Source: a virus
Reading direction: 5' to 3' (one strand)
DNA: 64,000 bases
Virus record (IMG/VR): IMGVR_UViG_3300029448_000015
Coordinates: 8,477-72,476 of that record
Shown: one piece after another, positions 1 through 64,000 of the stretch
Layout: every line of letters starts with the position of its first letter
Position numbering within the stretch: position 1 is the first letter of the stretch
The notes under the pieces: generated by a model
Database searches by the model: none
What the model was told of the DNA's origin: nothing
The model's input: the letters and a program-made list of their open reading frames with translations, nothing else
Translations under genes and position numbers: made by a program

Positions 1-2
1 TT

Positions 3-2783
3 ATAATTAAAGCTGCTGTTCCTGTTTTATCTGGTGGAATTGGATTTGATGGAACAATCGTTACTCCTTCAAAAGTTTTTGGTACTGAAAATTATAGTGA
101 TTTGTCTTTTGATGAAAGAAGAAAAATACTACTAGAGCAAAGACAATCAAAAGCAAATAAAGATAATCGTAAAGCAGCTACTTTATATGCAGAAAACCCT
201 AATAAAAAATCTAACGAACTGTCTTCATTTTTAGGACAAGTAGCTGGATCGTTAATGTCTCCTACTACTCTTGCTCCGACATTAAGACTAACAAAAAGTG
301 CTAGTGCAGCTTTAGCAGGACGGCCAGTATTAAAAAGAACTGCTGAAGATATTGGAACAGGGGCTATTTACGGAGGTCAATATAGTATATTAGATCAAGT
401 TGCCAAAGAAGGAGAGGTAGACCCTTCAAAAACAATAAGAGATACAGGTGTAGGGGGATTAGCAGGACTTTTCCCAGTAGGAGTTTCTGGAGTTTCTCAA
501 GTAGCTAAAGCTGCTGTAACTTCAAAACCAGTATCTTTTATTACGGATGCTGCTACTGTTCAAATTAAATTAAAAGCCGTACAAAACAAAACAAAAGTCT
601 TACAAAAAGAAATAGCTGAAAGAATAGTTACTCAAACTCCTGATGTTCCTGCTTCACAAATAATACAACAAGCTAAAAATTCTTTAGGAATGACTAATGC
701 AGAATTAAGAGATATCTACGCTTATGGAGATTTCCAATATCCTAGTGCGGAAGATGCTTTAAAAATTACTGCTGCAAAAGAAAATCCTATTTCTTCTAAA
801 ATAAAACTTGGAGAAACAATAGACGAGTTTATAACTCCTATAAGTACAAGAATAAAAAATTTATCTCTTCCTGTTTTTGGAAGTTTAAGACAAATGGAAT
901 TTAACTTATCTGTCAATAAAGCACGATACCTTAAACAAAGTGAAGACTTTATAGACAGTCTCACAAAACTTAAAAGATCTAAATTAATAGGTGGAGGCTC
1001 AACAAAAGTTAAAGAAAATTTAAAAAAATTTGAAGTTAAATTATTTAACGGAGATTTTGTTGGAGCTAAAAAAATAGCTTCAGATAATTTTCCAGAACTG
1101 TTAAAGCCTTTAGATAAAATTATTAATAATAAAACTGGAGTTTTGCCTAAATTATATAAAGCTTTAAAGAAGTCAGGCTCTTCCGTAGCGTTTAGAGAAA
1201 ATTATTTTCCTAGAGTAGTAAAAGATTTAAAAGGATTAAATTCTGTTTTAGAAAAAGATCCTAAAAATGATGCAGTTAAATTTTTAGATAAAATTGCTTT
1301 AGCTTCTAAAAGAACTAGTTGGAAAGAATTAACTAATGAGGAACAAATAGAAGGGTTAAATAAATTTTTTCAAGTTAGAAATTTACAAGCAGCAAAAAAA
1401 GGATTTAATGCACAAAGAAAAATAGAAACTCTTGATGAATCTTTGTCAGAATTTTATCACTCTCCTAGTGAATCTTTGTATATGTACATTAATTCAGCAG
1501 TTACCGATATTGAGTTAAGAAATTTTTTAGGGACAAAAAGCACTATAGAAGAAGGAGGTATTTTAAAAACACTAGATTTGAGTAAAAGTGTAGGTAGTAA
1601 AATTTTACAGACTGCTCCTAAAATATCTCAAGAAAATTTAGAAAAATTAAAACATCTTTTAGAAGTTAGACTTAACGCTGAAAAACTTAAAGCTTCTGAT
1701 ACTCTTATAAATATAAAAGATATTCAAACTATGGTAACTCTAGGACAAGTTGATTCTGCAATAACTCAGCTTGGAGATTTAGGAAGTGCTATTTATGTAA
1801 GTAATTTAGCTGCTGCTATTAAAGGATTAGCTAAAGCAGCTACTAATAAAACAAGAGTAAATGTTGAAGAATTAGGTTTAATAAATAATATAACAGCAGA
1901 TTTAAACTCAAATGGATTTTTTAATAAAGCTACTGATAATGTTTTAAAAGCAATTCAATTTAGAAGAGCAGATAGGTTAGGAAAAGAAACTTTAATAGAA
2001 GGTGCTTTAGAAGCTAATGCTAAACTTGCTAGAACAAACCCTCAAAAAATAGTCTCTGAATGGGGAGAAATTTTTGGTAAAGACGTAAATAAACTTATTG
2101 GAGATTTACGATCTGAAACAATTAGTGAAGAAGTTAAATTATTTTTGTTCCACAAGTTAAGTGATATACAACCTATCACTCTTTCTGAAATGCCTGAAAA
2201 ATATTTAAAGATGCCTAACGGCAGAATTTTTTATGCGTTAAAAAGTTTTACTTTAAAACAATTAGATGTTGTTAGAAGAGAAGGACTTTCTGAAATAGCT
2301 AAAGGAAATTATTCTAAAGGGTTTAAAAACTTAATGTCTTGGGGAGTTACCTTTGGATTAGTTAATGGCACAGTACAATCATTTAAAGATTCTCTTTTAA
2401 ATTTAGAAATGGATGTAGGTATAGACGCTATTTCAGATGAAGCGTTTGAATCTTTTGCTTCTTTGTTATTCTTAAACAAATACAGCAGAGAAAAATATTT
2501 TGGAGAAGGAATTATTCCTCAGGGAATAGATTTTGGACTTGGAGTTATTTCTCCACCAGCTTTAGATCTGGGAGAAGATGTAGGTAATTTTATTAATAAC
2601 CTGTACAAAGAAGTAGATGAAGATAGTGAAGCTGATCCAGAATATTTTGATAAATTTTTAACAGATAAAATCCCTCTTTTCGGAAGAGTTTGGTACAACT
2701 GGTTTGGCGGTGGATTAGAAAAACGAGCAGAGCGTAAGAAAAAAGAGGAACAAAAAGAAACAAGAAAATACTTTGCTTTGTAA
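3..2783 (+). CDS. Large internal virion (ejection/core) protein, set A; 5'-truncated by the window edge
   Basis: Frame is open from position 3, so the TTG at 102 is probably not the true start. Last gene of a structural operon; NYFPRVVKD resembles NYLPRMWSR in 32959-36543. Confidence 0.65.
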   Translation: MIKAAVPVLSGGIGFDGTIVTPSKVFGTENYSDLSFDERRKILLEQRQSKANKDNRKAATLYAENPNKKSNELSSFLGQVAGSLMSPTTLAPTLRLTKSASAALAGRPVLKRTAEDIGTGAIYGGQYSILDQVAKEGEVDPSKTIRDTGVGGLAGLFPVGVSGVSQVAKAAVTSKPVSFITDAATVQIKLKAVQNKTKVLQKEIAERIVTQTPDVPASQIIQQAKNSLGMTNAELRDIYAYGDFQYPSAEDALKITAAKENPISSKIKLGETIDEFITPISTRIKNLSLPVFGSLRQMEFNLSVNKARYLKQSEDFIDSLTKLKRSKLIGGGSTKVKENLKKFEVKLFNGDFVGAKKIASDNFPELLKPLDKIINNKTGVLPKLYKALKKSGSSVAFRENYFPRVVKDLKGLNSVLEKDPKNDAVKFLDKIALASKRTSWKELTNEEQIEGLNKFFQVRNLQAAKKGFNAQRKIETLDESLSEFYHSPSESLYMYINSAVTDIELRNFLGTKSTIEEGGILKTLDLSKSVGSKILQTAPKISQENLEKLKHLLEVRLNAEKLKASDTLINIKDIQTMVTLGQVDSAITQLGDLGSAIYVSNLAAAIKGLAKAATNKTRVNVEELGLINNITADLNSNGFFNKATDNVLKAIQFRRADRLGKETLIEGALEANAKLARTNPQKIVSEWGEIFGKDVNKLIGDLRSETISEEVKLFLFHKLSDIQPITLSEMPEKYLKMPNGRIFYALKSFTLKQLDVVRREGLSEIAKGNYSKGFKNLMSWGVTFGLVNGTVQSFKDSLLNLEMDVGIDAISDEAFESFASLLFLNKYSREKYFGEGIIPQGIDFGLGVISPPALDLGEDVGNFINNLYKEVDEDSEADPEYFDKFLTDKIPLFGRVWYNWFGGGLEKRAERKKKEEQKETRKYFAL

Positions 2784-2785
2784 AG

Positions 2786-2959
2786 CTACTGAGTAACTAC
2801 TATAGTTTTATTGTTTTTAGTTAAACAAACAGCATTAACTTCGTATCTTTTTTCTAAATCTTTTAGAAGAGTTGTACATTGGTCAGTTTGATCTGGGCCT
2901 GTAAACACTTTAAATAAAAACCAAGTGCTTATTGTTACTAGATATAAGCTAGTAGTCAT
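2786..2959 (-). CDS. Hypothetical 57-aa protein (not in ORF track)
   Basis: Read by hand: MTTSLYLVTISTWFLFKVFTGPDQ...VVTQ*; ATG overlaps the TGA of the upstream gene. Confidence 0.55.
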   Translation of the reverse strand: MTTSLYLVTISTWFLFKVFTGPDQTDQCTTLLKDLEKRYEVNAVCLTKNNKTIVVTQ

Positions 2960-3279
2960 TTAGAATCTTCAATCGTTGTAATCATTTTTTCTAAATAGTA
3001 TTGAGCTTTCTTTAAATCTTTTAAATGATCCTTATATCTCCATCTATGGAGGTACTTCATTACATTACCTTCGCAGTAAACAAAAAAGTTTTCCCCTAAT
3101 TGCTGCTCAATGTATTTGATTGCCTCCATACCTCCTTTATTGTAGTGTTCGGGCCTAGTAATTACGTCAAATTTTTCTTCTTCTTCTTTTTCTTTAGTAT
3201 CTACAATAGAGACATTCAAACTGTCTTGTTTATTTTTATCCCATTCTTCAGTAGTAACGTCATTTAATCTTTTTTTCAT
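2956..3279 (-). CDS. DUF3310 (T7 gp1.7-like nucleotide kinase family) protein, set A
   Basis: RPEHYNKGGMEAIKYI...GNVMKYLHRWRYK...DLKKAQYYL motif; start moved to the ATG after a GGAG SD. Confidence 0.8.
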   Translation of the reverse strand: MKKRLNDVTTEEWDKNKQDSLNVSIVDTKEKEEEEKFDVITRPEHYNKGGMEAIKYIEQQLGENFFVYCEGNVMKYLHRWRYKDHLKDLKKAQYYLEKMITTIEDSK

Positions 3280-3283
3280 CGTG

Positions 3284-3685
3284 TTATTCTCCTGCGGTAG
3301 CATAGTCAATTAATTCTGGAATAGTATCTAAAGTAAAAAAAGGTATTCTTTCTTTTCGACACCAATTCCCCATTGTTAATTTACTTCCTTTCCGTACTTT
3401 TTTATTAGGGTCAGCCAGTAAAAAAATAAAATCTTTGCCTTCCTCAATAAACATATCTCTTACTGCTTTGTATTTTTGTACATCCCCTTCCCTAAAAAAT
3501 CCTTTACACTCTACATATAACTTTTTGTTATAAACAAAGTCTGGAACATATATTCTAGGTATAACGTAAGGGAGGGCTTCAGGTTCAAACTTCATCCTTA
3601 TTTTATTATGGATTGCTTCAGCAAAATTCTTTTCAAATTTAGATCTATACTTATTTTTAGGGCGTACAGATTTGCTTTTTTTCAT
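3284..3685 (-). CDS. T7 endonuclease I-like resolvase, set A
   Basis: YRSKFE...YVPDF...VECKGFF motif. Confidence 0.8.
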   Translation of the reverse strand: MKKSKSVRPKNKYRSKFEKNFAEAIHNKIRMKFEPEALPYVIPRIYVPDFVYNKKLYVECKGFFREGDVQKYKAVRDMFIEEGKDFIFLLADPNKKVRKGSKLTMGNWCRKERIPFFTLDTIPELIDYATAGE

Positions 3686-3686
3686 T

Positions 3687-3896
3687 TTAAATCCTAGCTA
3701 TCCAATGAACTTTTGAAAGCTTTTGTTTTTTTAGTGCAGCAGAGTATTGCTCAAAATTAACATCTCTTGATTTTTCTGCTCTGCATTTCCGACACTCATA
3801 AAAAACTCCTGTAGTGAACTGTTCTATATCGTCACATTCACAAAATTTACATACGTACTTTTTTCTTTTTAAAGCTTTTTCTTTTTTAGAATTCAC
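3687..3896 (-). CDS. Small Cys-rich (zinc-ribbon-like) protein
   Basis: CKFCEC and CRKC pairs; fits the operon. Confidence 0.55.
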   Translation of the reverse strand: MNSKKEKALKRKKYVCKFCECDDIEQFTTGVFYECRKCRAEKSRDVNFEQYSAALKKQKLSKVHWIARI

Positions 3897-4767
3897 TGGC
3901 TAACACCTTAAAATTTTGTTCTTGTACTTTAGGTTCTTTAACTACTTTCGTTAAAAACACTGGGCCTCTAGCATAGTTAAAGACTCTTAAATTAGGGTAA
4001 CAATGATGTTTAAACTCACAATAAGAACACCCTATTGCTAATTTTCTATTTCCTAATTTACCTTCAGGGACATCTTCATAACAAAATTCTTTTGGTTCTG
4101 ATTTACTAACTACTCTTTTAATATGTTCAATCTGTTCTGCAATGTCTCCCTGAAGATTCTCATACATAGGATCTTTTTTATCTTTCAAGTCATGTTTTAA
4201 ATAAGTAATGTGTCCATTCTGTTTATCCATCGCTAACCAACCAAATTCAGTTTCATTCTCTGAATAGGCATAAGCTTTTATTTGTCCTATGTAACCAAAA
4301 GGATCGTCTTCAGCTACTTTTCTATCTTTAAATTTTTTAAAACCAAATACTGAAGCTGATTTAACGTCAGTTAAGACACCATCTATCTTACAGTCCATAG
4401 AACCCTGAACACCTCTAACTTCACAACGCTTTTGTTCATCAGTTACTTTATGTCCAGACATTCTAGTTAAAAACAAAAGCATTTCTTCTATGAGATGTCC
4501 GTACATAAATTTAAGTAAGGTGTAAGGCTGTAATTCTTCTGAAGGAGTTTCGTGGTATTTATTCCAAATGTATTTATCAGGTCTGCCAATTAAAGACATA
4601 CGGAGTTTTCTTTTATCTTTATTACGATCAACTAAAAATTGATTTCGCATTAACTCTTTAACTGATTCACCAAACAGTTCTATATTTTTTTCTATGTCTA
4701 TTTCATCAGAAGTTTCTTTTGTAGAAAGAAGACTGTATATGTCTTCTACTAATGTGTCTGTTCCCAT
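3886..4767 (-). CDS. PD-(D/E)XK (Cas4-like) exonuclease, set A
   Basis: GSMDCKIDG..DVKSAS, QIKAY, C-terminal CSYCEFKHHC; homologous to 40703-41551. Confidence 0.8.
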   Translation of the reverse strand: MGTDTLVEDIYSLLSTKETSDEIDIEKNIELFGESVKELMRNQFLVDRNKDKRKLRMSLIGRPDKYIWNKYHETPSEELQPYTLLKFMYGHLIEEMLLFLTRMSGHKVTDEQKRCEVRGVQGSMDCKIDGVLTDVKSASVFGFKKFKDRKVAEDDPFGYIGQIKAYAYSENETEFGWLAMDKQNGHITYLKHDLKDKKDPMYENLQGDIAEQIEHIKRVVSKSEPKEFCYEDVPEGKLGNRKLAIGCSYCEFKHHCYPNLRVFNYARGPVFLTKVVKEPKVQEQNFKVLASEF

Positions 4768-6473
4768 GAGTCCCCCACTTTATATTCTCCGTCCAATGGA
4801 CATTTTAAATTAAAACGATTACCTGCTGCTCTAATACAGCTAACTGCAAGCTTACCAAATTCTTCTGCTTTTTCTTCACTAACTTCAGATTGAATTTCAT
4901 CGTGTATATTACCAACAAATTTAAAATCTATTCCCCAAAGCTTTGCATATTCATCCAACAGTACCAAAGCTTTTTTCATTACTAATGCACCTGCTGATTG
5001 TAGTAATGTATTTAATGCTGAGTGTTCTGAGCGTACAAAAAGCTGTCTCCCGTCTAACCCTTTTAGTGTTCCCTTTGATCTGACCTTTTGTACAACTCTG
5101 TCTCTAAGCTCTTTAAGTGACGGGACACGATACAAAAATTGTTCTCTAAGAAATCTTCCATCCCCTTTGCTTCCTCCAACCACTGAACCAAGTCTTTCAT
5201 CTCCTGCTCCGTACAAGAAGGCATAGATAAAAGTTTTTGCTGTATCTCTTGATTTAAGTCCTGCAAGCTTTTGATTAAGGGAGTGTATATCTCCGTTAAT
5301 AATTTCATTAGTGTACCCTTCATTATTCATATAGTGGGCTAACATTCTCAGTTCTAAACCAGAGGCATCAACTCCGACTACTTTGTACCCTTCTTTAGCA
5401 ATCCAACAAGAACGACATTCTTTCCCGTAAGGTGAATAGACTGCGGGGACTTGAGCCATATTTGGTTTAGAATGAGTAAATCTGCCAGTAACTGCACCAT
5501 TAGTATTTACATACCCATGAACTCGATTGTCTTTATCTGCTACATCTAACCAACTTTGTACCTGCGCTTTTCTCTTTTGAATGGTAATGTATTCAGCAAT
5601 CAGTTTAGCTTCTGGTATATCAACATTAGCTAACGTAGATTCATCTACAATAGGGTGATTATTATCTGTAAATTTATCAGGTTCCCATCCTGCTTTTTGT
5701 AAACAAACTGCTATCTGTTGCCTAGAAGATAAATTAAAGGGGCGATATTCTATCCTGCAAAAGTCCCCAGAAACAGTCTGCCAATCGTCACCTAAGAACT
5801 TTAAACCTACCTTACTAAACTCATTAGTATTCTTTTTAATCTTTGGAGTAATGACTTTGATAAAAGTAAACATAGGTTTAAATGTTTTATGCACCTCATC
5901 TTCTATTGCGTATAGCTTCTCCTTAAATTCTGCTACTAAGGAAGTCGCTAAAGAGTGATCCAACAACCACCCATTGTTAATTTGTTCTTTAATTATGGAC
6001 TGTACTTTGTGTTCTAGCTCGATGGAATCAGGATTAAATTCCCTTAACTCTAATTCTAATTTTTTTAGAACTTGCTCTGTAACTGCGACATCTTGCTCAC
6101 AATATTTAATCATCTCACAAGATAATTTTTCCCATTCATTATGCGAACCTTTAGGAAAGTTTAGTCTTTCTCCCCAAGCACGTAAGCTATGCCCTCCTTC
6201 TCTGGATGGGTTTGCTAGTCGAGACAATACAAGACTGTCTAGTAATTGATAGGATGCCAGATCTACATTCCAAAGTTTCTGAAGAACAGGGAAATCAAAG
6301 GCAATGCCATTATGAGCAACAATAGTATCAACTTCGACAGTCGCTAAAGCAGCTTTAAATTCTGCTTCAGAATAAACTGTAGGAAATAGATTGGATGAAC
6401 AACACCATATTCTTGTAGGTGTCAGCCCATCAGTTTCTATGTCAAGAATTAATGTGTTTAGTAATAAGTTCAT
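4749..6473 (-). CDS. Family A DNA polymerase with 3'-5' exonuclease (T7 gp5-like), set A
   Basis: DIETDG, HNGIAFD, TGR, DASGLELRMLAHY, AKTFIYAFLYG, HDEIQ. Confidence 0.95.
   Translation of the reverse strand: MNLLLNTLILDIETDGLTPTRIWCCSSNLFPTVYSEAEFKAALATVEVDTIVAHNGIAFDFPVLQKLWNVDLASYQLLDSLVLSRLANPSREGGHSLRAWGERLNFPKGSHNEWEKLSCEMIKYCEQDVAVTEQVLKKLELELREFNPDSIELEHKVQSIIKEQINNGWLLDHSLATSLVAEFKEKLYAIEDEVHKTFKPMFTFIKVITPKIKKNTNEFSKVGLKFLGDDWQTVSGDFCRIEYRPFNLSSRQQIAVCLQKAGWEPDKFTDNNHPIVDESTLANVDIPEAKLIAEYITIQKRKAQVQSWLDVADKDNRVHGYVNTNGAVTGRFTHSKPNMAQVPAVYSPYGKECRSCWIAKEGYKVVGVDASGLELRMLAHYMNNEGYTNEIINGDIHSLNQKLAGLKSRDTAKTFIYAFLYGAGDERLGSVVGGSKGDGRFLREQFLYRVPSLKELRDRVVQKVRSKGTLKGLDGRQLFVRSEHSALNTLLQSAGALVMKKALVLLDEYAKLWGIDFKFVGNIHDEIQSEVSEEKAEEFGKLAVSCIRAAGNRFNLKCPLDGEYKVGDSWEQTH
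5063..5308 (-). CDS. Candidate nested +1-frame ORF (81 aa) inside polymerase A
   Basis: GAAGGG 7 nt before ATG; counterpart at the same position in polymerase B (42153-42404). Confidence 0.45.
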   Translation of the reverse strand: MKLLTEIYTPLIKSLQDLNQEIQQKLLSMPSCTEQEMKDLVQWLEEAKGMEDFLENNFCIVSRHLKSLETELYKRSDQREH

Positions 6474-7008
6474 TGATAGGGGTCAAGTCTCGAATTAGTA
6501 CGCCATAAGTATCATTTACAAATTTAAAAGAGAGTCTATTTGGATCTCGTTCTCCCTTCTCAAAAAAATCCGCTTGATTGTAAAAGTCTTCTTTTAGCAT
6601 AAACCCTAATAACCAACACTTCGTTAAATCCTTAGTGACTCTAGTAAACACATAAGCATCACAATTTTGTTGCGTATTAAAAGCAGATACTAAACAGTTG
6701 TAATGAGGCATAGGTTTAACATTTGTAACGGAAGATTTAACGTCTAATTTATTAATACTTTTTCCTTTTGAGTCTTCAACTTCTTCTATAAGAATGTCCC
6801 AATCATAACTATTGTTCCACTTTACAGATACTCTATTGTCTGCAAGATATTTATAAACGACTCCTTCCCCTATAAAACCATAAATGTTACCTGCACCTTC
6901 AGTAAGACTATTCTTTAATGTCCCCATTGTTTCAGATTTTTCTGAGGCAATGTCTATGATGTCCTGAGAAACAGTTACTTCTACAATGTCAGCAAGTTTA
7001 AAAGTCAT
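6442..7008 (-). CDS. Putative PD-(D/E)XK nuclease-fold protein between primase and polymerase
   Basis: GFIGE...YDWDIL...LDVKS spacing. Confidence 0.55.
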   Translation of the reverse strand: MTFKLADIVEVTVSQDIIDIASEKSETMGTLKNSLTEGAGNIYGFIGEGVVYKYLADNRVSVKWNNSYDWDILIEEVEDSKGKSINKLDVKSSVTNVKPMPHYNCLVSAFNTQQNCDAYVFTRVTKDLTKCWLLGFMLKEDFYNQADFFEKGERDPNRLSFKFVNDTYGVLIRDLTPINELITKHINS

Positions 7009-8656
7009 CTGAATTATCCCCAGTTGGTTTTTGTGTCTCCTGCATCCTACCTATTTCTTGATCGTACTTTAAGTAAGTCGCTGGCCCTGTTAAACCAGTG
7101 TATCTATTTTTTAATACTCTAACTGTTGTTACATTTCGTATATGTTCGGACTCATTTTGTTGATCTCGTTCTAATCCAATCACGATGTCCGATAACTGAG
7201 CAATAGCCTGAGATCCTCTTAGCTCACTAAGACTAATCCTACCTCCATCTTCATGCGCTGTTCCGTTAGATCGTCTTAAATGAGACACTAAAAACAATCC
7301 AATACCTAACTCCTGCACTAAAGATCTGAGTTTAGTCATAATGGCATCAATGTTCTTACGCTCATCTCCTCCTTCCTGCGAGGAAACAACAATAGATAAA
7401 TGATCTAAAACAATCCATTTGCACTCCAAAGCTTTAGCCATGTATCTAACGTGAGACATTAAACTGTCTTCATTAGTCGATCCCCAGTGATCTAGGAGAT
7501 AAAATCTGCCTGTTCCTAAAGTTGAATCCCAGTAAGGTTTAAAGTCTTCTGTATCTGTATCCTCGTCAAGATGAAGAGGTTTATTAGCAGCCATCGACAT
7601 GATACCCAGTGCTGTTCTAGTAATGGATTCCTCTAACGCCAATACACCAAGTTTATCTTCAGTCTCTGTAAAGAGATGGTGCTGTATTTCTCTAACCAAA
7701 TGAGACTTACCCATGCCACTACCTGAAGTAACAGTAACTAACTCAAAGGGTCTAATTCCTTTTGTTAATTTATTCAACCCTCCCCACGGATACGGGATAC
7801 TACTAATCTTTCTATCGCTAAGTAATGTGCTCCAAGTTTCTTCTCCTGCAATAATCCCGTCTGGGCGGTACTGTTTAGCAGCCCACCAACAACTAACAAA
7901 ATCCTTAATGCGATTCGCCATTAACATTTCGTTAGCGTCTTTCATTGGTAACGTACAGATCTTTAGTTTGTTGGGACTGAATAAATCTTTAACGGAATCT
8001 AGTGCGGTTTTCCCTGCTGAATCATTATCGAAACAAAGCACTACCTGTTCGTAGGATTCCTCCAACCATTTTAAATTCTCCTGCAATTCTTTCTTTGCTG
8101 CTTGCGCTCCATTGCGTAAAGAAACTACATCCCATTTCCTATCAAACATTTCACTAATAGAAAGTGCATCTAGTTCCCCTTCACAAATAGTTATAAATTT
8201 CCCTCCACCAACAGCGCAAGTCTGGTGTCCAAAGAGTCCTAAATCTCTGTTCTCTCCTGAAAAAGAAAATTGTTTATCCGCTACATAGCGAGTCTTAACT
8301 GCTAGTTCCTGTAGGGATTCTCTGGAATAGTAAGGGTAATGGTGTTTATGGATTTCACCTGTAGAGGAATACTCTACTCGTACATTAAATTTTCTACAGG
8401 TTTCTTCCGATACCCTACGTGTTTGGATTTCGGCTATAACTCCTGACATTTCGTTTTTTTCTCCTGCAAATCGTTGGTAATTCGTCTGTTTTGTTAGTTC
8501 CTCATTTGTTGCGGGTTCAAAATAATTGCAACCGGAGGAAAAACACCAAGCATGTCCATCACTATAACGTGCTAAGTTATTGGTGCTGTTACAGGACGGA
8601 CACGCCTCATGTCTAACAAACACACTCTCAGTGTTTGTTGACTCGTTCATTGGCAT
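6998..8656 (-). CDS. T7 gp4-like primase-helicase, set A
   Basis: Zn finger CPSC..WCFSSGC, TOPRIM EGELD and FDND, Walker A SGSGMGKS, DHL, LRGS, KNRYTG. Confidence 0.95.
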   Translation of the reverse strand: MPMNESTNTESVFVRHEACPSCNSTNNLARYSDGHAWCFSSGCNYFEPATNEELTKQTNYQRFAGEKNEMSGVIAEIQTRRVSEETCRKFNVRVEYSSTGEIHKHHYPYYSRESLQELAVKTRYVADKQFSFSGENRDLGLFGHQTCAVGGGKFITICEGELDALSISEMFDRKWDVVSLRNGAQAAKKELQENLKWLEESYEQVVLCFDNDSAGKTALDSVKDLFSPNKLKICTLPMKDANEMLMANRIKDFVSCWWAAKQYRPDGIIAGEETWSTLLSDRKISSIPYPWGGLNKLTKGIRPFELVTVTSGSGMGKSHLVREIQHHLFTETEDKLGVLALEESITRTALGIMSMAANKPLHLDEDTDTEDFKPYWDSTLGTGRFYLLDHWGSTNEDSLMSHVRYMAKALECKWIVLDHLSIVVSSQEGGDERKNIDAIMTKLRSLVQELGIGLFLVSHLRRSNGTAHEDGGRISLSELRGSQAIAQLSDIVIGLERDQQNESEHIRNVTTVRVLKNRYTGLTGPATYLKYDQEIGRMQETQKPTGDNSDDF

Positions 8657-56306: not shown

Positions 56307-58481
56307 ATGGCTGAAGAAAACAGTTTAACGGCAAATGAACTCTATTTTGAGCAATCAGAGGATGAGCAAGGACTAGAGCTTACTCTAGAAGAATCTTTGC
56401 AAAATAATCTGGTTGCTCTGTTAGTAGATAGATATCAAGCTGCTGAGAGTGCTAGAGATTTAGATGAAAGTAGGTGGATAACCTCTTATCAGAATTATCG
56501 TGGTCTTTATAATAAAGACGTTAAGTTTAGAGAATCTGAAAAGTCTAGAGTCTTTGTTAAAGTAACTAAAACAAAAGTTCTAGCTGCTTTCGGTCAGCTT
56601 GTAGATGTAATCTTTGGATCAAATAAATTTCCTATAGGTATTTCAGAAACTAAAATGCCTGAAGGTGTATCTAAACACGCTCATTTAGATACTCAAAATC
56701 CTTTACCGGGAATTGAAACTACTCAAGCTCAAGAAGCAGAAACTGAAAATCCTTTTGATGTAGGTTATGAAGGAGATGGAAGGGTACTTAAACCCGGAGC
56801 TACCTTTGGTTCTGGAAAGTTTGATGTAACTCCTATAGATAAAAAGTTACAGGAAAATGTTGTAGAAGGTGCAGGAATTACTCTTGAAGAGTTTAGTATA
56901 TCTCCTGCTAAAGAATCTTCTAGAAGGATGGAAAAACTTATCCATGATCAAATAGAAGAATCTAATGGCTCTAGTGAAATTAGAAATGCTTTATTTGAAT
57001 CTGCTTTATTTGGTACAGGTATTGTTAAAGGCCCATTTAACTTTAATAAAACATTAAATAAATGGAATGAGGAAAACGGAGAAAGGGTTTATAACCCAAT
57101 AGACGTTAGAGTTCCTCGTATAGAGTTTGTATCTATCTGGGATTTCTTCCCTGATCCTAATGCGACTAACATAGATGAATGTGAATATATATTTCATCGT
57201 CATAAGATGAATAAGACTAAAGTACGTGCATTAGCTAAAATGCCTTATTTTAATAAGAATGCTATAAGAGAAGCATTAGAATTAGGGCCAAACTACGAAG
57301 AAAAAGAATATGAAACTGCTTTAAAAGATGATCAACGTAGTGAAGCTTATGGTAGTGGAATGTTTGAAGTTGTTGAGTATTGGGGTGTCATGGATGCTGA
57401 ATATGCTCGACAAGTTGGTATGGAAATATCAGAAGATGTTGATGATCTAGATGAAGTACAGATTAATGCTTGGATGTGTAATGGAAAACTTTTAAGAGCA
57501 GTTATTAATCCCTTTACCCCTTTTAGATTGCCTTACCACGCATTTCCATACGAAAGAAATCCCTATAGCTTTTTTGGTATTGGTGTAGCTGAGAACATGG
57601 ATGACTCTCAAAAGATTATGAATGGTCATGCAAGAATGGCGATTGATAATCTTGCACTTTCAGGGTCACTTGTTTTTGATGTTGATGAGACTGCTCTTGT
57701 AGGTGGTCAGAATATGGAAATATATCCGGGTAAGATATTTAGGCGACAAGCAGGTGTACCCGGAACAGCTATCAATGGTTTGAAGTTTCCTAATACATCA
57801 AATGAAAACATGATGATGTTTGATCGCTTTAGACAGCTTGCAGATGAACAAACAGGTATTCCTAGTTACTCACATGGCATGACAGGTGTACAGAGTATGA
57901 CTCGTACTGCTTCAGGGATGTCAATGTTGCTAGGTGCTGCCTCTTTAAATATTAAAACAGTTATTAAAAATCTAGATGACTTTCTTTTAAAGCCTTTAGG
58001 AGAATCTTATTTTCAATGGAATATGCAATTCTTAGATAGTGATATAGGTGTTGAAGGTGATTTAGAAGTTAAAGCAACAGGTACAAATAGTTTGATGCAA
58101 AAAGAAGTTAGAAGTCAAAGGCTAACTACTTTCTTACAAACTATACAAAATCCTGCTGTAGCTCCTTTTATTAAAATACAAAAATTAATTACAGAGTTAG
58201 CAATTAGTTTAGAGCTAGATCCTGATGAATTAATGAATGATCCAGAAGAAGCTGCTTTAATGGCTAAAATTATAGGAATGCAGAATGTTGGACAAGCAAC
58301 TGGCGAAGAAACTAGCCCCCTTGGTGAACAACAAGGAGCTATGGGAAGCCCTACAGGAGCACCTAACCAACCTCAAAACCTTGGAGTTACAGGTACTGGT
58401 GGGGGCAACATCGGAACAGGAAATGTTCCGCAGCCAAGGGAAGATGAATTTGCTGGTACGCCTAGAGCAGTTGAAGGCTAA
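56307..58481 (+). CDS. Portal protein, set B
   Basis: 724 aa; SALFGTGIVKGP, FFGIGV, G-rich tail. Confidence 0.85.
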   Translation: MAEENSLTANELYFEQSEDEQGLELTLEESLQNNLVALLVDRYQAAESARDLDESRWITSYQNYRGLYNKDVKFRESEKSRVFVKVTKTKVLAAFGQLVDVIFGSNKFPIGISETKMPEGVSKHAHLDTQNPLPGIETTQAQEAETENPFDVGYEGDGRVLKPGATFGSGKFDVTPIDKKLQENVVEGAGITLEEFSISPAKESSRRMEKLIHDQIEESNGSSEIRNALFESALFGTGIVKGPFNFNKTLNKWNEENGERVYNPIDVRVPRIEFVSIWDFFPDPNATNIDECEYIFHRHKMNKTKVRALAKMPYFNKNAIREALELGPNYEEKEYETALKDDQRSEAYGSGMFEVVEYWGVMDAEYARQVGMEISEDVDDLDEVQINAWMCNGKLLRAVINPFTPFRLPYHAFPYERNPYSFFGIGVAENMDDSQKIMNGHARMAIDNLALSGSLVFDVDETALVGGQNMEIYPGKIFRRQAGVPGTAINGLKFPNTSNENMMMFDRFRQLADEQTGIPSYSHGMTGVQSMTRTASGMSMLLGAASLNIKTVIKNLDDFLLKPLGESYFQWNMQFLDSDIGVEGDLEVKATGTNSLMQKEVRSQRLTTFLQTIQNPAVAPFIKIQKLITELAISLELDPDELMNDPEEAALMAKIIGMQNVGQATGEETSPLGEQQGAMGSPTGAPNQPQNLGVTGTGGGNIGTGNVPQPREDEFAGTPRAVEG

Positions 58482-58509
58482 CGTAAAGGAGCAATTAGAT
58501 AATGGGTAA
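58285..58509 (+). CDS. Head-module protein overlapping the portal 3' end
   Basis: AGGA SD; resembles 18379-18642. Confidence 0.6.
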   Translation: MLDKQLAKKLAPLVNNKELWEALQEHLTNLKTLELQVLVGATSEQEMFRSQGKMNLLVRLEQLKANVKEQLDNG

Positions 58510-60424
58510 AAAGAAAGTAATTGATAATGTTCTGTCGCTTTTAGGTGCTCAAGAAGACAAAGTTATTAAAAAAGAAAGACAAAAAAGGGCTAAAGATTTT
58601 TCTTCTGAAGATACTTTAAAAGAAGATCTTAATGAATTAAATGAATTAGAATTAGAAGAATATCTAGAAGAACAAGGTTTAGATGAATTTGATCTAATGA
58701 ATATGGGAGTTCTTGATTTAGATGATGAAAGTGTACAAATAGCAGAAAAAGGTGCTTTATCTTTCTTTTCCTATAGTCCTAAAGAAGCAGGTAAAAATTG
58801 GATTGATAGTGGTAATACTGCCAATCTTTTAGAATATATGTCTACAGAACTAGATGATCCTAAAAAACTTAGAGATTTTATGGATGGTCTTTCTGATGAC
58901 ACAGTTACTTTTGATGATTATGCAAATGAAGATATTCAAAATCATGCAGATAAATTATTAGAAGAAATGAAAACTTTAAGAGTTATAAAAAATGAAGGTT
59001 CTTTACTAGGAGATATTCCTAAGTCTCAATTTGCAGATAAAGATATTAAAGCTGCAGAAAAATCTATAGAAAAACGTAGAGAATTTTTTGAAAGAGATGG
59101 TGAAGTATTTGAAAGAGTTCCTTTAGATAGTGGAGAAGATATGCCTTCTTCCTTTCTAAGGAGAGCTACTTCAGAAGAAACTTCTAATTTTAAAAAAGGC
59201 AGAGAAAACTTTAGAGTAGGTAAACTTGTAAAAGGTTTATTTGGTGATAAACCTACAGCAATCTCTGAACTTTTACATTTTATGGTAGAAAGACGAGTAG
59301 ATAAAGGAGCAACTAAAAAAGAAGCTTTTAAAGAGATTAGTGAAAATACAAAACTTCCTATAAAAGAAATAGAAGAAAATGAAAAAATATTTTCTCGTTT
59401 GAGTGGTGGAGGAGCTTCTAAAGATATGGTTGATGAAGTTATGCTAACAGGCAAATCTTTATTGAGAAGACCTACTGCATTACAAGAAGCTGCTGAAAAC
59501 ATTGCAGGTGGTAAAGGAACTAAATCAACACGCATAGCTAGAAGAAAAGCAGGGAAAGCTGCAATAGGTGGAGGAGTTTTAGGATATCTTCTAGGTGAAC
59601 TAGATTTACCTCCAGAAAAAGCTTCAGAGTTTGAACAAGCTTTTAGTGAAGCTCATAACGCAGGAGAAGAAACTTTTACTTTTGATGGTAAAGAGTTTTC
59701 AACTGAAGTTAAAAAAGGTAAAGCTATGGGCGGTACAATGTATAACAAAGGCTCATTAGTAGGTAATCAAACTACACTAGATGCTAATAAAGATGGTGAT
59801 ATAACAGGAGAAGACTTTGCTATGCTGCGTAATAAAAAACAAGAAGGTGGCTCTATGCTAGTTCCTCCTGAAATGGAAGCAATGGCAGAGGATATGCCAG
59901 TAGATACCTATCCTAATATTCCACCTGAAGAGATGGCAGAAGTAGAAGCATCACAATTACCTGATGCAGACATGGAAAAAGACTATATGGATTTTGTAGT
60001 AGGAGAATCCTTAGATAGTGAAGAACAAAATTATTTAATGAATGCTTTAGAAGCAGACCCTCAACTGAGTCAAATTTTTGGTAAAGTTGTAACGACTGCT
60101 TCTGAGTTTACTGGTTCTGGAGAAGTTTCCGGGCCGGGAACAGGTGTATCAGACTCAATACCTGCACGATTGTCAGATGGAGAGTTTGTATTCACCAAAA
60201 AAGCTACCGATCAAATGGGGGCAGATAATCTTCAGATGATGATGGATGATGCTGAACGTGCATTTGATGGTGGCGAAATGAGAATGCCTAAACAAGAAGG
60301 CGGTAGCATGATGATGTATAAACAAAAGGATGAAGATCCTCTTGCTTATGAAAAAATAGCTCAAGACGAGATTAAAAAATCTATGTTAAGAGCTAATCGT
60401 GCACCAAGTTTAATGATGTCTTAG
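58502..60424 (+). CDS. Acidic head-module protein
   Basis: GPGTGVSDSIPARLSDGEFV, DANKDGDITGED loop, repeated xxGG motifs. Confidence 0.6.
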   Translation: MGKKKVIDNVLSLLGAQEDKVIKKERQKRAKDFSSEDTLKEDLNELNELELEEYLEEQGLDEFDLMNMGVLDLDDESVQIAEKGALSFFSYSPKEAGKNWIDSGNTANLLEYMSTELDDPKKLRDFMDGLSDDTVTFDDYANEDIQNHADKLLEEMKTLRVIKNEGSLLGDIPKSQFADKDIKAAEKSIEKRREFFERDGEVFERVPLDSGEDMPSSFLRRATSEETSNFKKGRENFRVGKLVKGLFGDKPTAISELLHFMVERRVDKGATKKEAFKEISENTKLPIKEIEENEKIFSRLSGGGASKDMVDEVMLTGKSLLRRPTALQEAAENIAGGKGTKSTRIARRKAGKAAIGGGVLGYLLGELDLPPEKASEFEQAFSEAHNAGEETFTFDGKEFSTEVKKGKAMGGTMYNKGSLVGNQTTLDANKDGDITGEDFAMLRNKKQEGGSMLVPPEMEAMAEDMPVDTYPNIPPEEMAEVEASQLPDADMEKDYMDFVVGESLDSEEQNYLMNALEADPQLSQIFGKVVTTASEFTGSGEVSGPGTGVSDSIPARLSDGEFVFTKKATDQMGADNLQMMMDDAERAFDGGEMRMPKQEGGSMMMYKQKDEDPLAYEKIAQDEIKKSMLRANRAPSLMMS

Positions 60425-60439
60425 GCATATTTAAATTAA

Positions 60440-60697
60440 GGCTACCTTGTACATACAAGCCCCAAATTCTTTAGACGTTTAGAATTGGCTACCTTGCAAG
60501 AAAAACAAGCCCCTTAGAAAAGGAGTAATGATGTCCGAAACAGAAATTTTAGAAGAAGAACAAGCTAATCCATATAATATGAAGAAAGCTTGGCATCAGC
60601 CTGACGGCAAACGTATGCCACAAGCAAATGAATTATATTATGAAGAAGAAGACGCTCCTGTTCAAAAGGCTACCCGTTCTCGAAAGAAAACGGCCCC
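60440..60697 (+). promoter_or_regulatory. Three GGCTAC-[hairpin]-CCCC elements at the scaffold gene
   Basis: Two upstream of the SD and one inside the ORF; stems differ but stay paired. Confidence 0.6.
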
Positions 60698-61382
60698 TAC
60701 TTCTGATGAGACTAATTATAAAAAAAGATACGATGATTTAAAAAAGCATTATGATAATAAACTTTCTGAATTTAAAGAGAGAGAACAGCAGTTAATATCT
60801 GAAGTTAAATCTCAAGAGCCTGAGTATCAAGCTCCTAAGTCTGTAGAAGATTTAGAAAAATTTAGAAATGATTATCCTGATTTGTATGAAACAGTTGAAA
60901 CTGTTGCTCATCAAAGAACTGAAGAACAACTTTCTAAAGTGCATGAAAAACTTTCTGTTTTGGAAGAAAGAGAAAATGCTATTGCACAAAAGGAAGCTGA
61001 ATCAGCTTTATCAGAACGTCATCCAGATTTTGATGATATTCGAGGTTCAGATGATTTTCATTCTTGGGCAAAAGAACAACCTGAACAAATACAAGGTTGG
61101 GTTTATGAGAACCCAAATAATGTTTCTTTAGCTATCAAAGCTCTTGATCTTTATAAATTAGAAACTGGAAAAGGACAAAGTTCTCAAAAATCTAGTTCAA
61201 ATAATAAACAACGTAGAGTTTCTGCTGCTGATATGGTTTCTACTAAAACCACAAATGTAGAACCTCGACAAGATAAAATTTGGACTGAAACTGAAATTGC
61301 GAAAATGTCCTTAGATCAATTTGATAAATATGAAGAAGATATTCGTCAAGCCATTGATGAAGGAAGGATTCGTAAAATATAA
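60528..61382 (+). CDS. Capsid scaffolding protein, set B
   Basis: YKKRYDDLKKHY coiled coil, HPDF, ends IRQAIDEGRI; precedes capsid gene. Confidence 0.8.
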   Translation: MMSETEILEEEQANPYNMKKAWHQPDGKRMPQANELYYEEEDAPVQKATRSRKKTAPTSDETNYKKRYDDLKKHYDNKLSEFKEREQQLISEVKSQEPEYQAPKSVEDLEKFRNDYPDLYETVETVAHQRTEEQLSKVHEKLSVLEERENAIAQKEAESALSERHPDFDDIRGSDDFHSWAKEQPEQIQGWVYENPNNVSLAIKALDLYKLETGKGQSSQKSSSNNKQRRVSAADMVSTKTTNVEPRQDKIWTETEIAKMSLDQFDKYEEDIRQAIDEGRIRKI

Positions 61383-61405
61383 CTTTTCTAGGAGTAATAT
61401 AAAAA

Positions 61406-62395
61406 ATGGCTTTTAACCAATCAGATCAGTTTTTTGAACAGAGTACAGATACCAATGGTAACTTTGGTAATTCTGTATCCGGTCAAAATAACTCTTTTTT
61501 CTTACCGAAGGTATATTCCAAGCAAGTTCTAAACTTTTTTCGTAAAGCGTCTGTAGCAGAAGCTATAACAAATACGGATTATGCAGGTGAAATTTCTGCT
61601 TTTGGAGACACAGTAAGAATAATTAAAGAACCCGAAATTACTGTTTATCAGTATGAGCGTGGTGCAGATGTAACGCAGACTAAGTTGACTGACCAAGAAG
61701 TTAGTTTGACTGTAGATATTGCTAATGCATTTAAGTTTATTGTTGATGACATAGAAACAAATATGTCTCACGTAAACTTTCGTGACGTAGCAACTTCATC
61801 TGCTGCTTATGCTCTCCGTGATGCTTTTGACGCAGGTGTTATTGCGACAATGATAGCAGGTGTTTCTGCATCGAGTCCTAATCATATATTGGGATCTGAT
61901 AATGCTACCGATCTTGCCGAAGGTACTTTTGATGGTACTGGTAATCTTGATATCGGTTTTGGAACGAATGAGCATGATCCTATTGATGTCCTTAGTCGTA
62001 TGGCTCGTCTTTTGGATGAGCAAAATGTTCCTGAAGAAGGTCGATGGTTCTTGGCAAGTCCTGAGTTCTATGAAGTTTTGGCTTCAAGTTCTTCTAAGTT
62101 GCTTTCCGTTGACTACAATGCAGGACAAGGATCTATACGAAATGGTCTAGTATCTTCTGGACTGTTGCGTGGATTTAATATGTATAAAACTAACAACATT
62201 GCAGCTACTACTAATGCAGCAGGACAATGTTTGGCAGGTCATATTTCATCTACAGCTACAGCACAAACGATTACTAGCACTGAAGTAATTCGTGATCCTG
62301 ACAGCTTTGGTGACATTGTACGTGGACTTCATGTTTATGGTACGAAGGTTCTCCGTGGTGAAGCATTGGTTTCTGCCTTTTATGGCATTGACTAA
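61406..62395 (+). CDS. Major capsid protein, set B
   Basis: FLPKVYSK, GDTVRII, DIVRGLHVYGTKVLR. Confidence 0.9.
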   Translation: MAFNQSDQFFEQSTDTNGNFGNSVSGQNNSFFLPKVYSKQVLNFFRKASVAEAITNTDYAGEISAFGDTVRIIKEPEITVYQYERGADVTQTKLTDQEVSLTVDIANAFKFIVDDIETNMSHVNFRDVATSSAAYALRDAFDAGVIATMIAGVSASSPNHILGSDNATDLAEGTFDGTGNLDIGFGTNEHDPIDVLSRMARLLDEQNVPEEGRWFLASPEFYEVLASSSSKLLSVDYNAGQGSIRNGLVSSGLLRGFNMYKTNNIAATTNAAGQCLAGHISSTATAQTITSTEVIRDPDSFGDIVRGLHVYGTKVLRGEALVSAFYGID

Positions 62396-62404
62396 TATAA
62401 GTTT

Positions 62405-62437
62405 GGGAGGGTCGTTATGCGGCCCTTCCGTTCTTTT
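62405..62437 (+). terminator. Rho-independent terminator after capsid gene B
   Basis: gggagggtcg-ttatg-cggcccttcc then gttctttt. Confidence 0.7.
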
Positions 62438-62449
62438 ATAGGATAAATA

Positions 62450-62641
62450 ATGGCTCAGATAGGTTCAAATGAAAATCCTGTTATGTTTCGTAAAGCGATT
62501 GTAAGTAAAAATAGTCGTTTTAGAAAAGGATTTGATAAATCAAAATATGATGAAAATTACGATAAAATTTTTAATAAAAATAAATCTGAGTTCGATATCT
62601 GTCGTGAGAAAAGTAAACCTTTTTGTAGTGAACAGGAATAA
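62450..62641 (+). CDS. Hypothetical protein
   Basis: ORF track; AGGA SD. Confidence 0.55.
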   Translation: MAQIGSNENPVMFRKAIVSKNSRFRKGFDKSKYDENYDKIFNKNKSEFDICREKSKPFCSEQE

Positions 62642-62647
62642 CAAATT

Positions 62648-62842
62648 ATGAAAAAAATGATGTATGGTGGGATGTCTAAAAAGAAAAACATGATGGGTGG
62701 CGGTAGAGCTATGTATGGTCATGGTGGTATGTATAAAAATGTACAAGACATGGAGAAACATTGTTACAAAGGTCTTAATGTTGCTAAAGGTTATGGAACT
62801 AAAAATGCTTTAGAAGTATCTATTTCAATAGAGAAAGTATAA
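62648..62842 (+). CDS. Small Met/Gly/Lys-rich protein
   Basis: MMYGGM, MMGGGR, YGHGGM. Confidence 0.55.
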   Translation: MKKMMYGGMSKKKNMMGGGRAMYGHGGMYKNVQDMEKHCYKGLNVAKGYGTKNALEVSISIEKV

Positions 62843-62985
62843 TGAAAGTTCCTGCTCCTAAAGGACATCATTGGATGAAACAAAAAAATGGTAGTTACAA
62901 ATTAATGAAACATCAGGGGAAATTTGTTAAACATAAAGGTGCTAGTTTAGCAGTTGATTTTCCTATCCAAAAAAAACATACATAG
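62842..62985 (+). CDS. 47-aa basic protein (not in ORF track)
   Basis: MKVPAPKGHHWMK...; TAATG-coupled. Confidence 0.55.
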   Translation: MKVPAPKGHHWMKQKNGSYKLMKHQGKFVKHKGASLAVDFPIQKKHT

Positions 62986-63002
62986 ATAACTAGTAGACCA
63001 TT

Positions 63003-63773
63003 ATGGCTGAAACATTTCTTAATTTATCAAATGAACTTTTAAGAGAGCTTAATGAAGTTTCTTTAAGTAGCACTACATTTTCATCAGCTATTGGTGTTCA
63101 AGCTCACGTTAAAGATGCTGTTAATAGAGCTTATCTAGATATTGTAAATGAAGAACCTCAATGGCCTTTTCTTGCTACAGGACTTAGTGGTGCCACAGAT
63201 CCTATGTATGGAAATGTTTATGTAGAAACAGTTGCAGGTACAAGATGGTATCTATTAAAAACTAGTAGTTCTAGTTTAACTACTGATTATGGTTATATAG
63301 ATTGGGGAAACTTTCTTTTAACTACAGTAGGAGTATCAGGAGAATCTGCTCCTCACACAATTCGTAATTTAAGATTTACAACTACGGAAGAGTGGAAAGA
63401 TTTTTTTAGGATTTCTCAAAATAAAGATGATTCAGATACTCAAAATTATGGAGTACCTTCTAGAGTTATTAAAAGTCCTGATAATAGAAAGTTTGGATTA
63501 AGTCCTATTCCAGATAAAGTCTATCGTATTTGGTTTTATGCTTATGATTTACCAACTGAACTTTCAGCACATGGAGATCAAATAGTATTTCCTAATATCT
63601 ATAAGCCTGTTCTTTTAGCAAGGGCTAGATATTATGTACATCAATTTAAAGAAAATCCTCAAGCATCTGCTTTTGCATTAGAAGATTATCGTAGAGGATT
63701 AAAATTAATGAAACTTCATCTTTTAGAACCTACTCCGGGTTATTTTAAAGATGACAGAATAAGGTTCGTTTAG
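63003..63773 (+). CDS. Head-tail adaptor / tail tubular protein A-like
   Basis: FLNLSNELLRELNE...AVNRAY..I...WPFL; LSPIPDKVY; position after capsid. Confidence 0.7.
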   Translation: MAETFLNLSNELLRELNEVSLSSTTFSSAIGVQAHVKDAVNRAYLDIVNEEPQWPFLATGLSGATDPMYGNVYVETVAGTRWYLLKTSSSSLTTDYGYIDWGNFLLTTVGVSGESAPHTIRNLRFTTTEEWKDFFRISQNKDDSDTQNYGVPSRVIKSPDNRKFGLSPIPDKVYRIWFYAYDLPTELSAHGDQIVFPNIYKPVLLARARYYVHQFKENPQASAFALEDYRRGLKLMKLHLLEPTPGYFKDDRIRFV

Positions 63774-64000
63774 TGTCTCAACCTTTCGCCCTAGCTTGTC
63801 GAGGTGGTTTAAATGTTAATTTAAATCAACTTGAAATAATGCGTCAGCCCGGATTAGCTACAGAGTTATTAAACTTTGAAGTAGATCCTGATGGTGGCTA
63901 TAGGCGTATTAGTGGCTTTACTTTATTTGGTGGAGGTTCTTCTGCAAGACCTAACTCTAGTAATAGAATACTTGGACTAGCTGTATATGCAGATGGCTTA
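63773..64000 (+). CDS. Tail nozzle / head-stabilisation protein, 3'-truncated
   Basis: GTG start overlapping TAG; GGLN...NFEVDPDGGYRRISGF; open to the window end. Confidence 0.65.
   Translation, partial: MSQPFALACRGGLNVNLNQLEIMRQPGLATELLNFEVDPDGGYRRISGFTLFGGGSSARPNSSNRILGLAVYADGL

Follow-up and report, generated by a model that had tools for sequence, protein, structure and literature searches.

The window analysed here is a stretch of 64,000 nucleotides covering bases 8477-72476 of IMG/VR record IMGVR_UViG_3300029448_000015, which is 72,476 bp long. The sequence is of marine origin with a GC content of 28-41%, and the record carries no host information. Two podophage gene sets lie in it one after the other, and are referred to below as phage 1 (set A) and phage 2 (set B) (Table 1). 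That the window holds two diverged but colinear sets, A then B, had been proposed from the letters alone, and Pfam, PHROGs and blastp searches bore this out. Between the window ORFs, blastp gave A-to-B protein identities of 50% for polA, 40% for the primase-helicase, 40% for the exonuclease, 24% for the portal and 22% for the capsid, and the two TerL proteins gave no match to each other at E 1e-3. The spacing between paired genes was 36.6-37.1 kb for replication, 40.3-41.6 kb for packaging and head, and 23.7 kb for the M15 pair. The TerS of B had only weak PHROG matches, and the putative TerS of A, with no family match in PHROGs or Pfam, is named from its position. PHROGs likewise gave no match for the late proteins of 657, 1187, 349, 170 and 788 aa or for the phage-1 proteins of 588, 400, 470 and 1041 aa.

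Table 1. Modules, shared sequence and paired genes, in window coordinates (A, phage 1; B, phage 2).
Feature	Position	Strand	Basis or remark
Phage 1 last late gene, 3' part	1..2783	+	1041 aa, start at record 8134; ORF list
Phage 1 replication/early: DUF3310, endonuclease I, Cas4-like exonuclease, polA, primase-helicase, Gp2.5-like SSB, small ORFs	2786..11917	-	Pfam, PHROGs
Phage 1 packaging/head/fibre: putative TerS, M15, TerL, portal, scaffold-like, capsid, fibres	12180..24432	+	PHROGs, Pfam
Phage 1 fibre genes	20823-22229 and 22239-24212	+	
Shared block, 345 bp, site of the join	24454..24798	.	L170, L183 and X5 comparisons
Exact 77-mer, same as record bases 1-77	24713..24789	.	Last shared vertex before the phage paths would split
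Phage 2 late: virion/ejection-type proteins of 1187, 349, 170, 788 and 1194 aa, M15 peptidase, small ORFs	24790..39171	+	PHROGs; G008 colinear
Phage 2 replication/early: DUF3310, endonuclease I, exonuclease, polA, primase-helicase, SSB	39173..52652	-	Pfam, PHROGs; G008 colinear
Further genes of the same phage 2 module: DUF932, polynucleotide-kinase-like, SLT transglycosylase, small ORFs with hairpin repeats	39173..52652	-	
Phage 2 packaging/head: TerS-like, TerL, portal, 640-aa protein, scaffold-like, capsid, tail protein (63003-63773)	53319..64000	+	PHROGs
DUF3310	A 2956-3309; B 39581-39934		Pfam
Endonuclease I (resolvase)	A 3284-3685; B 39953-40456		Pfam
Cas4-domain exonuclease	A 3886-4767; B 40703-41551		PHROGs
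DNA polymerase A	A 4749-6473; B 41854-43596		Pfam
Toprim+DnaB primase-helicase	A 6998-8656; B 43593-45266		Pfam
Gp2.5-like SSB	A 8656-9078; B 45588-46022		PHROGs; A weak, E 3e-5
Putative TerS of A	A 12441-12884		Position
Peptidase M15	A 12856-13224; B 36543-36917		Pfam
TerL	A 13648-14910; B 53954-55627		PHROGs
Portal	A 14914-17025; B 56307-58481		PHROGs
Scaffold-like phrog_13678	A 18928-19749; B 60528-61382		PHROGs
Major head protein phrog_267	A 19773-20726; B 61406-62395		PHROGs

A PHROG scan of record 1-8476 placed the remaining late/tail module of phage 1 upstream of the window, with its adaptor and nozzle at record 2670-4842, so that the earlier note's picture of a half lacking both did not hold. 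At the other end, the phage-2 gene starting at 63773 is cut off by the end of the record. Its homologue continues in G008, a complete relative of phage 2 with a terminal repeat of 127 bp, where about 5-7 kb more follow before the late module. Most of the nozzle-like gene of B and its fibres are therefore absent because the record ends.

Record bases 1-77 were identical to window 24713-24789, and identity fell to only about 70-80% directly after. No exact repeat in the record exceeds this 77-mer in length, and the second longest measures 50 bp; the self-overlap begins at base 1, and record 1-33188 thus closes on itself like a circular path at k=77. The 77-mer lies within a 345-bp block, longer than the presumed k, in which independent contigs of the two lineages agree at about 98.6%. 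The block contains a 63-aa ORF (24475-24666) and the 5' end of the ORF at 24680-24955, and comes shortly after the variable fibre genes. Contigs L183 (phage 1) and L170 (phage 2) gave one ungapped 345-bp alignment and no other similarity. L170 aligned to the window only from 24454 onward, with unrelated sequence of its own upstream, and was 99% identical to the window over 25899-29633; in run X5, record 25 also begins at 24454. On the phage-1 side, record 11 of run X2 spans 19117-24798 and continues with 2051 letters unlike the window, and the first indel between the phage-1 and phage-2 copies is at 24798. The join, at 24454-24798, falls inside the interval of 20.8-25.4 kb given for it previously. 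Position 24734 is G in L183 and in the phage-1-depth contigs of X1, X2 and X3, and T in both copies in the record, whose 77-mer therefore carries either the phage-2 allele or a minor phage-1 allele. The exact 43-mer directly left of the block had no match in the viral-contig collection, from which the record itself was possibly excluded.

The position of the join also bears on the idea of tandem prophages, or of one phage integrated in the other, carried on the chromosome or a plasmid of a host. Head-to-tail order and a single orientation would suit such an arrangement, but the join lies within a coding block and not at an att-like site, host genes are absent, no tRNA was found in the window (record 8477-72476), no integrase family appeared among the 63 of 108 ORFs scanned (the remaining 45 being mostly <100 aa), and several runs containing these sequences are labelled viral metagenomes. 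We regard this arrangement as extremely improbable.

Phage 1 was also found closed and on its own. In L183, a contig from an independent metagenome, the phage-1 fibre is followed by the block and then by the sequence of record 78-377, with 14 mismatches in 1454 positions over window 23336-24789 and none in 300 over record 78-377; against the phage-2 branch, the same 300 positions gave 195 ungapped mismatches. Record 1-2154 was 99.95% identical to L183. Two IMG/VR relatives of phage 1, G011 and L186, have the same order, with fibre first, then the block, then a homologue of the record start. All four near-complete TerL-A relatives (35-37 kb, 95-100% complete) had the 506-aa late protein encoded there, and none of the five records searched had the 1194-aa protein of phage 2, which upholds the assignment of genes to A and B. 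The separate closed form of A, given by the 77-bp overlap and L183, is one of the signs of an artefact named in the earlier note. Complete relatives are 35-37 kb long for phage 1 and 45-53 kb for phage 2.

Three other layouts were considered, of which the first two were rejected. First, a full phage at window 2.8-38.5 kb (replication A, head A and the phage-2 late module), with pieces of B flanking it and joins at the convergent points near 2.8 and 38.5 kb, was rejected because near-complete TerL-A relatives have the late module found at the record start, not the phage-2 one, and the 77-mer puts the join at 24.7 kb. Second, a circular A+B record with its end joined to its start was rejected; the last bases match nothing else in the record, and G008 has the additional 5-7 kb between its homologue of the last ORF and the late module. 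Third, the join could coincide with physical ends of a genome or with a DTR; the starts of the four near-complete phage-1 relatives lie 1.5-9.1 kb ahead of the 506-aa gene, so that no end is common to them, and contigs cannot show molecule ends.

A further reading is a stably fused genome, 72 kb or more in size, with two head modules in one replicon and possibly packaged as two halves. The record itself, rated 100% complete by CheckV, is all that speaks for it, and this rating is expected for any contig that exceeds the length of its relatives. Against it, phage 1 closes on itself in an independent contig, relatives of each half are complete at their own lengths, part B is truncated at the record end, and the halves vary independently among runs (see below). 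The probability of a stable fusion is accordingly close to nil in our view. The suggested packaging as two hybrid halves was not supported either; the adaptor and nozzle of A lie upstream, and the nozzle region of B is cut by the record end.

Depth was compared over window 14713-34712 as one mean per Logan contig, summed over the contigs placed, rather than from raw reads. In X1, the possible source run, depth was 30.4-54.6 left of 24717 versus 11.4-20.5 right of it, a step of about 2.5-fold; this coverage step at the join is another of the signs of an artefact named in the earlier note. Left and right values were 10.3-29.8 versus 0-5.0 in X2 and 9.9-15.8 versus 0-1.9 in X3, except for one spike bin of 210.7; in X5 they were 0-8.1 versus at least 12 in 12 of 15 bins. 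Phage 1 thus occurs in X3 nearly without phage 2, and X5 shows the opposite. The comparison covers these four runs; X4 and X6-X20, with word shares of 0.28-0.40, lie outside it. Among the X1 pieces listed, none bridges 24483-25680 in either configuration. A depth step would also arise if a minority of the molecules were genuinely joined and phage 1 occurred free as well.

Alternatively, the record could be a real heteroconcatemer or cointegrate, in which co-infecting phages recombined at the 345-bp block and the intracellular product was assembled. The length and similarity of the block would suffice for homologous recombination, X1 contains both phages, and the join has the orientation that recombination would produce. 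However, depth is unequal across the join in X1 (by contig means), and the record starts exactly at the junction 77-mer, which is explained by graph traversal and not by biology. A single crossover would lead to hybrids or to a circle with a reciprocal junction; the B-to-A junction that had been proposed as a check is found nowhere in the full record, which opens with the 77-mer of the join and breaks off within a phage-2 gene, its end matching nothing else in it. Moreover, the succession of phage-1 fibre, block and phage-2 late genes occurred in none of the five independent contigs that carry the block or the 63-aa gene in it (L183, L170/L184, G011/L185, L186 and L187). A cointegrate is accordingly highly improbable, though somewhat less so than a stable fusion or prophages.

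These results argue that the 72.5-kb record arose as an assembly chimera between the genomes of two separate marine podophages and is not one fused virus, a reading to which we assign a probability of roughly 0.93. It draws on direct observations, namely the 77-bp self-overlap, the shared block, the step in depth, and phage 1 occurring and closing on its own. Among the options of chimera, cointegrate and stable fusion raised earlier, with the chimera held at least as likely as the others, the first is supported; the depth step, the separate closure and the missing reciprocal junction speak against the other two. The genome of phage 1, a marine podophage, is complete at about 33.2 kb (record 1-33188; window up to 24712). 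Phage 2 is a second, different podophage, of which about 39.5 kb (window 24454-64000) are present out of the 45-47 kb expected.

In a de Bruijn graph, a block common to both phages would form a single shared path. The assembler would have begun at the last shared 77-mer, gone once round phage 1, re-entered the block and then taken the phage-2 branch, so far unused, rather than completing the circle, and the path would have ended where the assembly of phage 2 broke, in the nozzle/fibre region. Both the k of 77 and this choice of path are our inference. According to the CheckV paper, the terminal repeats seen in IMG/VR contigs at 55, 77 or 99 bp correspond to common assembler k-mer lengths and come from broken circular templates, and over-long concatenated contigs, with the same genome repeated 2.0-6.8 times, are regarded as assembly artefacts (PMC8116208). 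The 127-bp repeat of G008 is of this kind. As in the contigs described there, an exact 77-bp repeat marks a circular closure and the record is about twice the length expected from relatives; unlike in them, a complete genome is joined to most of another via a short common block (PMC8116208). Since the two parts differ, a k-mer-frequency test for repeated genome copies would not flag the record.

Judged by TerL similarity, phage 2 appears to have its closest cultured relatives among the HTVC103P-type pelagiphages. The best cultured matches of its TerL were HTVC103P, HTVC104P and HTVC115P (63-66% identity over 93-94% of the length), and polA of phage 1 was 47-48% identical to phages of this type. 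According to their description, these marine phages combine a T7-like replication module with an HMO-2011-like structural module, and the isolates have genomes of 54-55 kb (bioRxiv 10.1101/2019.12.14.876532). The two-module architecture and the habitat agree with our phages, whereas the complete genomes of uncultured phage-2 relatives measure 45-53 kb and identity is well below genus level. With HMO-2011-type phages (SAR116, RCA roseophages), similarity to CRP roseophages and related phages reached 45-47% identity for TerL of phage 2 and 27-29% over about 29% of the portal for phage 1; the similarity is low, however, and phage 1, at 33 kb, is much smaller. The best cultured matches of its capsid were cyanopodophages (28-34%), and phage 1 belongs to a group without a close cultured relative.

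With respect to data quality, a record rated 100% complete consists of one complete genome and about 85% of another, and taken at face value it would distort statistics of genome size, gene content and taxonomy. Splitting it at 24712|24713 yields a closed podophage genome of 33,188 bp and a large HTVC103P-like fragment. Phage mosaicism can proceed through short shared sequences at module boundaries. The 345-bp block, about 99% identical between otherwise dissimilar genomes and lying beside variable fibre genes, resembles such sequences, and is real but ordinary phage mosaicism. Near identity over about 345 bp between distant phages would indicate recent exchange, and phages 1 and 2 probably share a host. 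A bolder proposal, which we consider unlikely, is that the block is no mere leftover of chance and serves as a recombination linker by the fibre genes, through which two co-infecting podophage genera exchange late/fibre cassettes, with transient heteroconcatemers in doubly infected cells; by analogy with the relatives of phage 2, the common host could then be SAR11. If true, this would provide a host link for the uncultured group of 33-37 kb phages and a defined point of exchange.

The 72,476-bp IMG/VR record is classed there as 'linear' with a CheckV completeness rating of 100%, and its coordinates equal those of the window plus 8476. GC content spans 28-41% within the window, with shifts in strand skew near 2.9, 12.2, 39.2 and 53 kb. 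An ORF listing together with family scans confirmed the two colinear gene sets that the earlier note had described, hereafter A (phage 1) and B (phage 2). Their proteins are diverged, with blastp identities of 50% for polA, 40% for the primase-helicase, 24% for the portal and 22% for the capsid, and no blastp match between the two TerL proteins at E 1e-3. The putative TerS of A is so named from gene position only. A tRNA search of the window found none, and the 63 ORFs scanned (of 108) gave no match to an integrase family. In addition, the M15 peptidase gene of phage 1 is located between TerL and the putative TerS, and not among late or lysis genes; in phage 2 it is found at the late-module end.

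Paired genes of the two sets, in window coordinates, with the family source of each name
Feature	A	B	Source
DUF3310	2956-3309	39581-39934	Pfam
Endonuclease I	3284-3685	39953-40456	Pfam
Cas4-domain exonuclease	3886-4767	40703-41551	PHROGs
DNA polymerase A	4749-6473	41854-43596	Pfam
Toprim+DnaB primase-helicase	6998-8656	43593-45266	Pfam
Gp2.5-like SSB	8656-9078	45588-46022	PHROGs
M15 peptidase	12856-13224	36543-36917	Pfam
TerL	13648-14910	53954-55627	PHROGs
Portal	14914-17025	56307-58481	PHROGs
Scaffold-like protein	18928-19749	60528-61382	PHROGs
Major head protein	19773-20726	61406-62395	PHROGs

The distribution of late proteins among IMG/VR relatives assigned the modules to their phages. A 506-aa late protein (record 3322-4842, upstream of the window) had a homologue at 50-52% identity in all four near-complete (95-100%) records with a TerL of type A, and none in a fifth such record that is 87% complete. 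The 1194-aa protein at window 32959-36543 was present in five of five TerL-B records and in none of the five TerL-A records. Therefore, phage 1 combines replication A and head A with the late module from the beginning of the record, and phage 2 occupies window ~24.5-64 kb, which agrees with the partition drawn in the earlier note. Our first reading, of window 2.8-38.5 kb as a single phage, was ruled out by the gene content of the relatives, which reach 35-37 kb for the TerL-A type and 45-53 kb for the TerL-B type.

Window 24713-24789 is identical to record bases 1-77, the match beginning at the very first base of the record; past base 77 the two copies drop to ~70-80% identity with indels. Record 1-33188 therefore closes on itself with a 77-bp overlap. 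No other exact repeat of the record exceeds 50 bp, the length of the second longest, and self-blastn of the record revealed no further near-identical repeat between the halves. According to the CheckV paper (PMC8116208), many IMG/VR terminal repeats are 55, 77 or 99 bp or the like, lengths that reflect assembler k-mers left after a circular template is broken. A k of 77 is our inference for this record. G008, a complete relative of phage 2, has a repeat of this type that measures 127 bp.

Independent contigs support the closure. L183, a metagenome contig retrieved through a 43-mer specific to the phage-1 side, differed from window 23336-24789 at 14 of 1454 positions and then followed record bases 78-377 with no mismatch in 300, against 195 ungapped mismatches to the phage-2 branch over the same 300 bases; record 1-2154 was 99.95% identical to it. 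Since L183 passes from the phage-1 side into the record start, a closed form of phage 1 exists in nature. Just one other viral contig, the IMG/VR contig L170 from elsewhere, contained the 77-mer exactly; its identity to the window was 98.8% over 24454-25719 and 99.1% over 25899-29633. The 478 bases of L170 that lie upstream of 24454 are unrelated to the window. L183 and L170 align solely over 345 ungapped bases (window 24454-24798, ~98.6%), so this block is common to both lineages, each with its own flanks. The 63-aa gene of the block is carried by four IMG/VR contigs: two are of phage-1 type (L185, the same contig as G011, and L186), running from fibre through block to record start, and two are phage-2-like (L184, which is the L170 contig, and L187). 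G011, ~85-92% identical to phage 1, has the order fibre, block homologue, homologue of record 3-933. Among the five independent contigs with the block or its gene (L183, L170/L184, G011/L185, L186 and L187), none showed the chimeric arrangement, in which the block follows phage-1 fibre and leads into phage-2 late genes.

We consider the fusion of phage 1 and phage 2 in this record to be an assembly artefact, with a probability of about 93%. A real heteroconcatemer of the two phages, formed at the block they have in common, is very improbable: no observation requires one, and graph traversal is favoured because the first base of the record coincides with the start of the junction 77-mer.

Parts of window 19713-29712 were found in 20 sequencing runs, all marine or viral metagenomes, and run X1, with 98% of the sampled words of that interval, may be the source of the record. 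We placed Logan contigs of four runs on window 14713-34712, in 15 bins on each side of 24717, where the depths are means per contig and not counts of reads. Depth on the phage-1 and phage-2 sides was 30.4-54.6 and 11.4-20.5 in X1, 10.3-29.8 and 0-5.0 in X2, and 9.9-15.8 and 0-1.9 in X3, the last apart from a single bin at 25385-26051 whose depth of 210.7 we attribute to unrelated sequence; in X5 the phage-1 side had 0-8.1 (four bins at 0) and the phage-2 side at least 12 in 12 of 15 bins. Among the matches listed, X1 pieces left 24483-25680 uncovered. One X2 contig (record 11, 7733 letters) spans 19117-24798, and its next 2051 letters do not resemble the window. Position 24798 is equivalent to record base 86, at which the first indel separates the phage-1 and phage-2 copies, and we infer closure of phage 1 in this contig as well. 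An X5 contig (record 25) spans 24454-25213, and the phage-1 fibre is without depth in that run. At position 24734, both 77-mer copies of the record and L170, of the phage-2 lineage, have T, and the phage-1-depth contigs of X1, X2 and X3 and L183 have G. Judged from these bases, the 77-mer at the record start may carry the phage-2 allele, or the T may stem from a minor phage-1 variant.

Phage 2 is incomplete in the record, with ~5-7 kb absent according to two distance comparisons. The 48,686-bp G008, rated complete, shares the gene order of phage 2 over the replication genes, TerL, portal, capsid (85% identity), tail protein (78%) and the last ORF. This ORF, cut by the record end at 64000, matched at 62% over 76 aa a G008 homologue that extends further, includes a stretch similar to the 506-aa protein of phage 1 and is followed by fibre genes ahead of the late module. 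The adaptor and nozzle which the earlier note had reported missing are thus accounted for, because their equivalents in A are found ahead of the window (record 2670-4842), and B has its tail protein (63003-63773) followed by a truncated gene.

Regarding affinities, TerL of phage 2 showed 63-66% identity to the Pelagibacter phages HTVC115P, HTVC103P and HTVC104P, and the HTVC103P-type group is described as joining an HMO-2011-like structural module to a T7-like replication module (10.1101/2019.12.14.876532). PolA of phage 1 was 47-48% identical to the same three phages, and its other cultured matches were distant (TerL ≤45%, capsid ≤34%, portal ≤29%).

The early region of phage 2 contains hairpin-type repeats (window 50843-52189 and 47894-47953), comprising the 50-bp exact repeat at record 59358 and 59987, related copies at ~52136-52189 of the window and a 60-bp palindrome at 47894-47953. 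The best-conserved late protein of the two phages (151 aa; window 37303-37758 and record 6247-6702; 67% identity) matched phrog_32327, of unknown function, weakly and had no Pfam match. A gene of 52-57 aa (79% aa identity) is placed differently in the two phages: phage 1 has it between TerS and TerL (13364-13537, plus strand), phage 2 in its early region (48985-49143, minus strand). Two small-gene pairs, of phrog_7595 and phrog_14910, are also common to both (17091-18303 and 38128-38963; 49% and 74% aa identity): 17091-17390 is homologous to 38670-38963, and 18049-18303 to 38289-38537. They lie between portal and scaffold in phage 1 and at the late-module end in phage 2, and the copies in G008 (138-1124) are nearer the phage-1 versions (70-88% aa); these small genes look like a mobile cassette. 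L187 (6620 bp) displays a third arrangement: after the 63-aa block gene (91% nucleotide identity) come homologues first of window 37797-38111 and then of 24955-25576, so genes near the block are rearranged among relatives.
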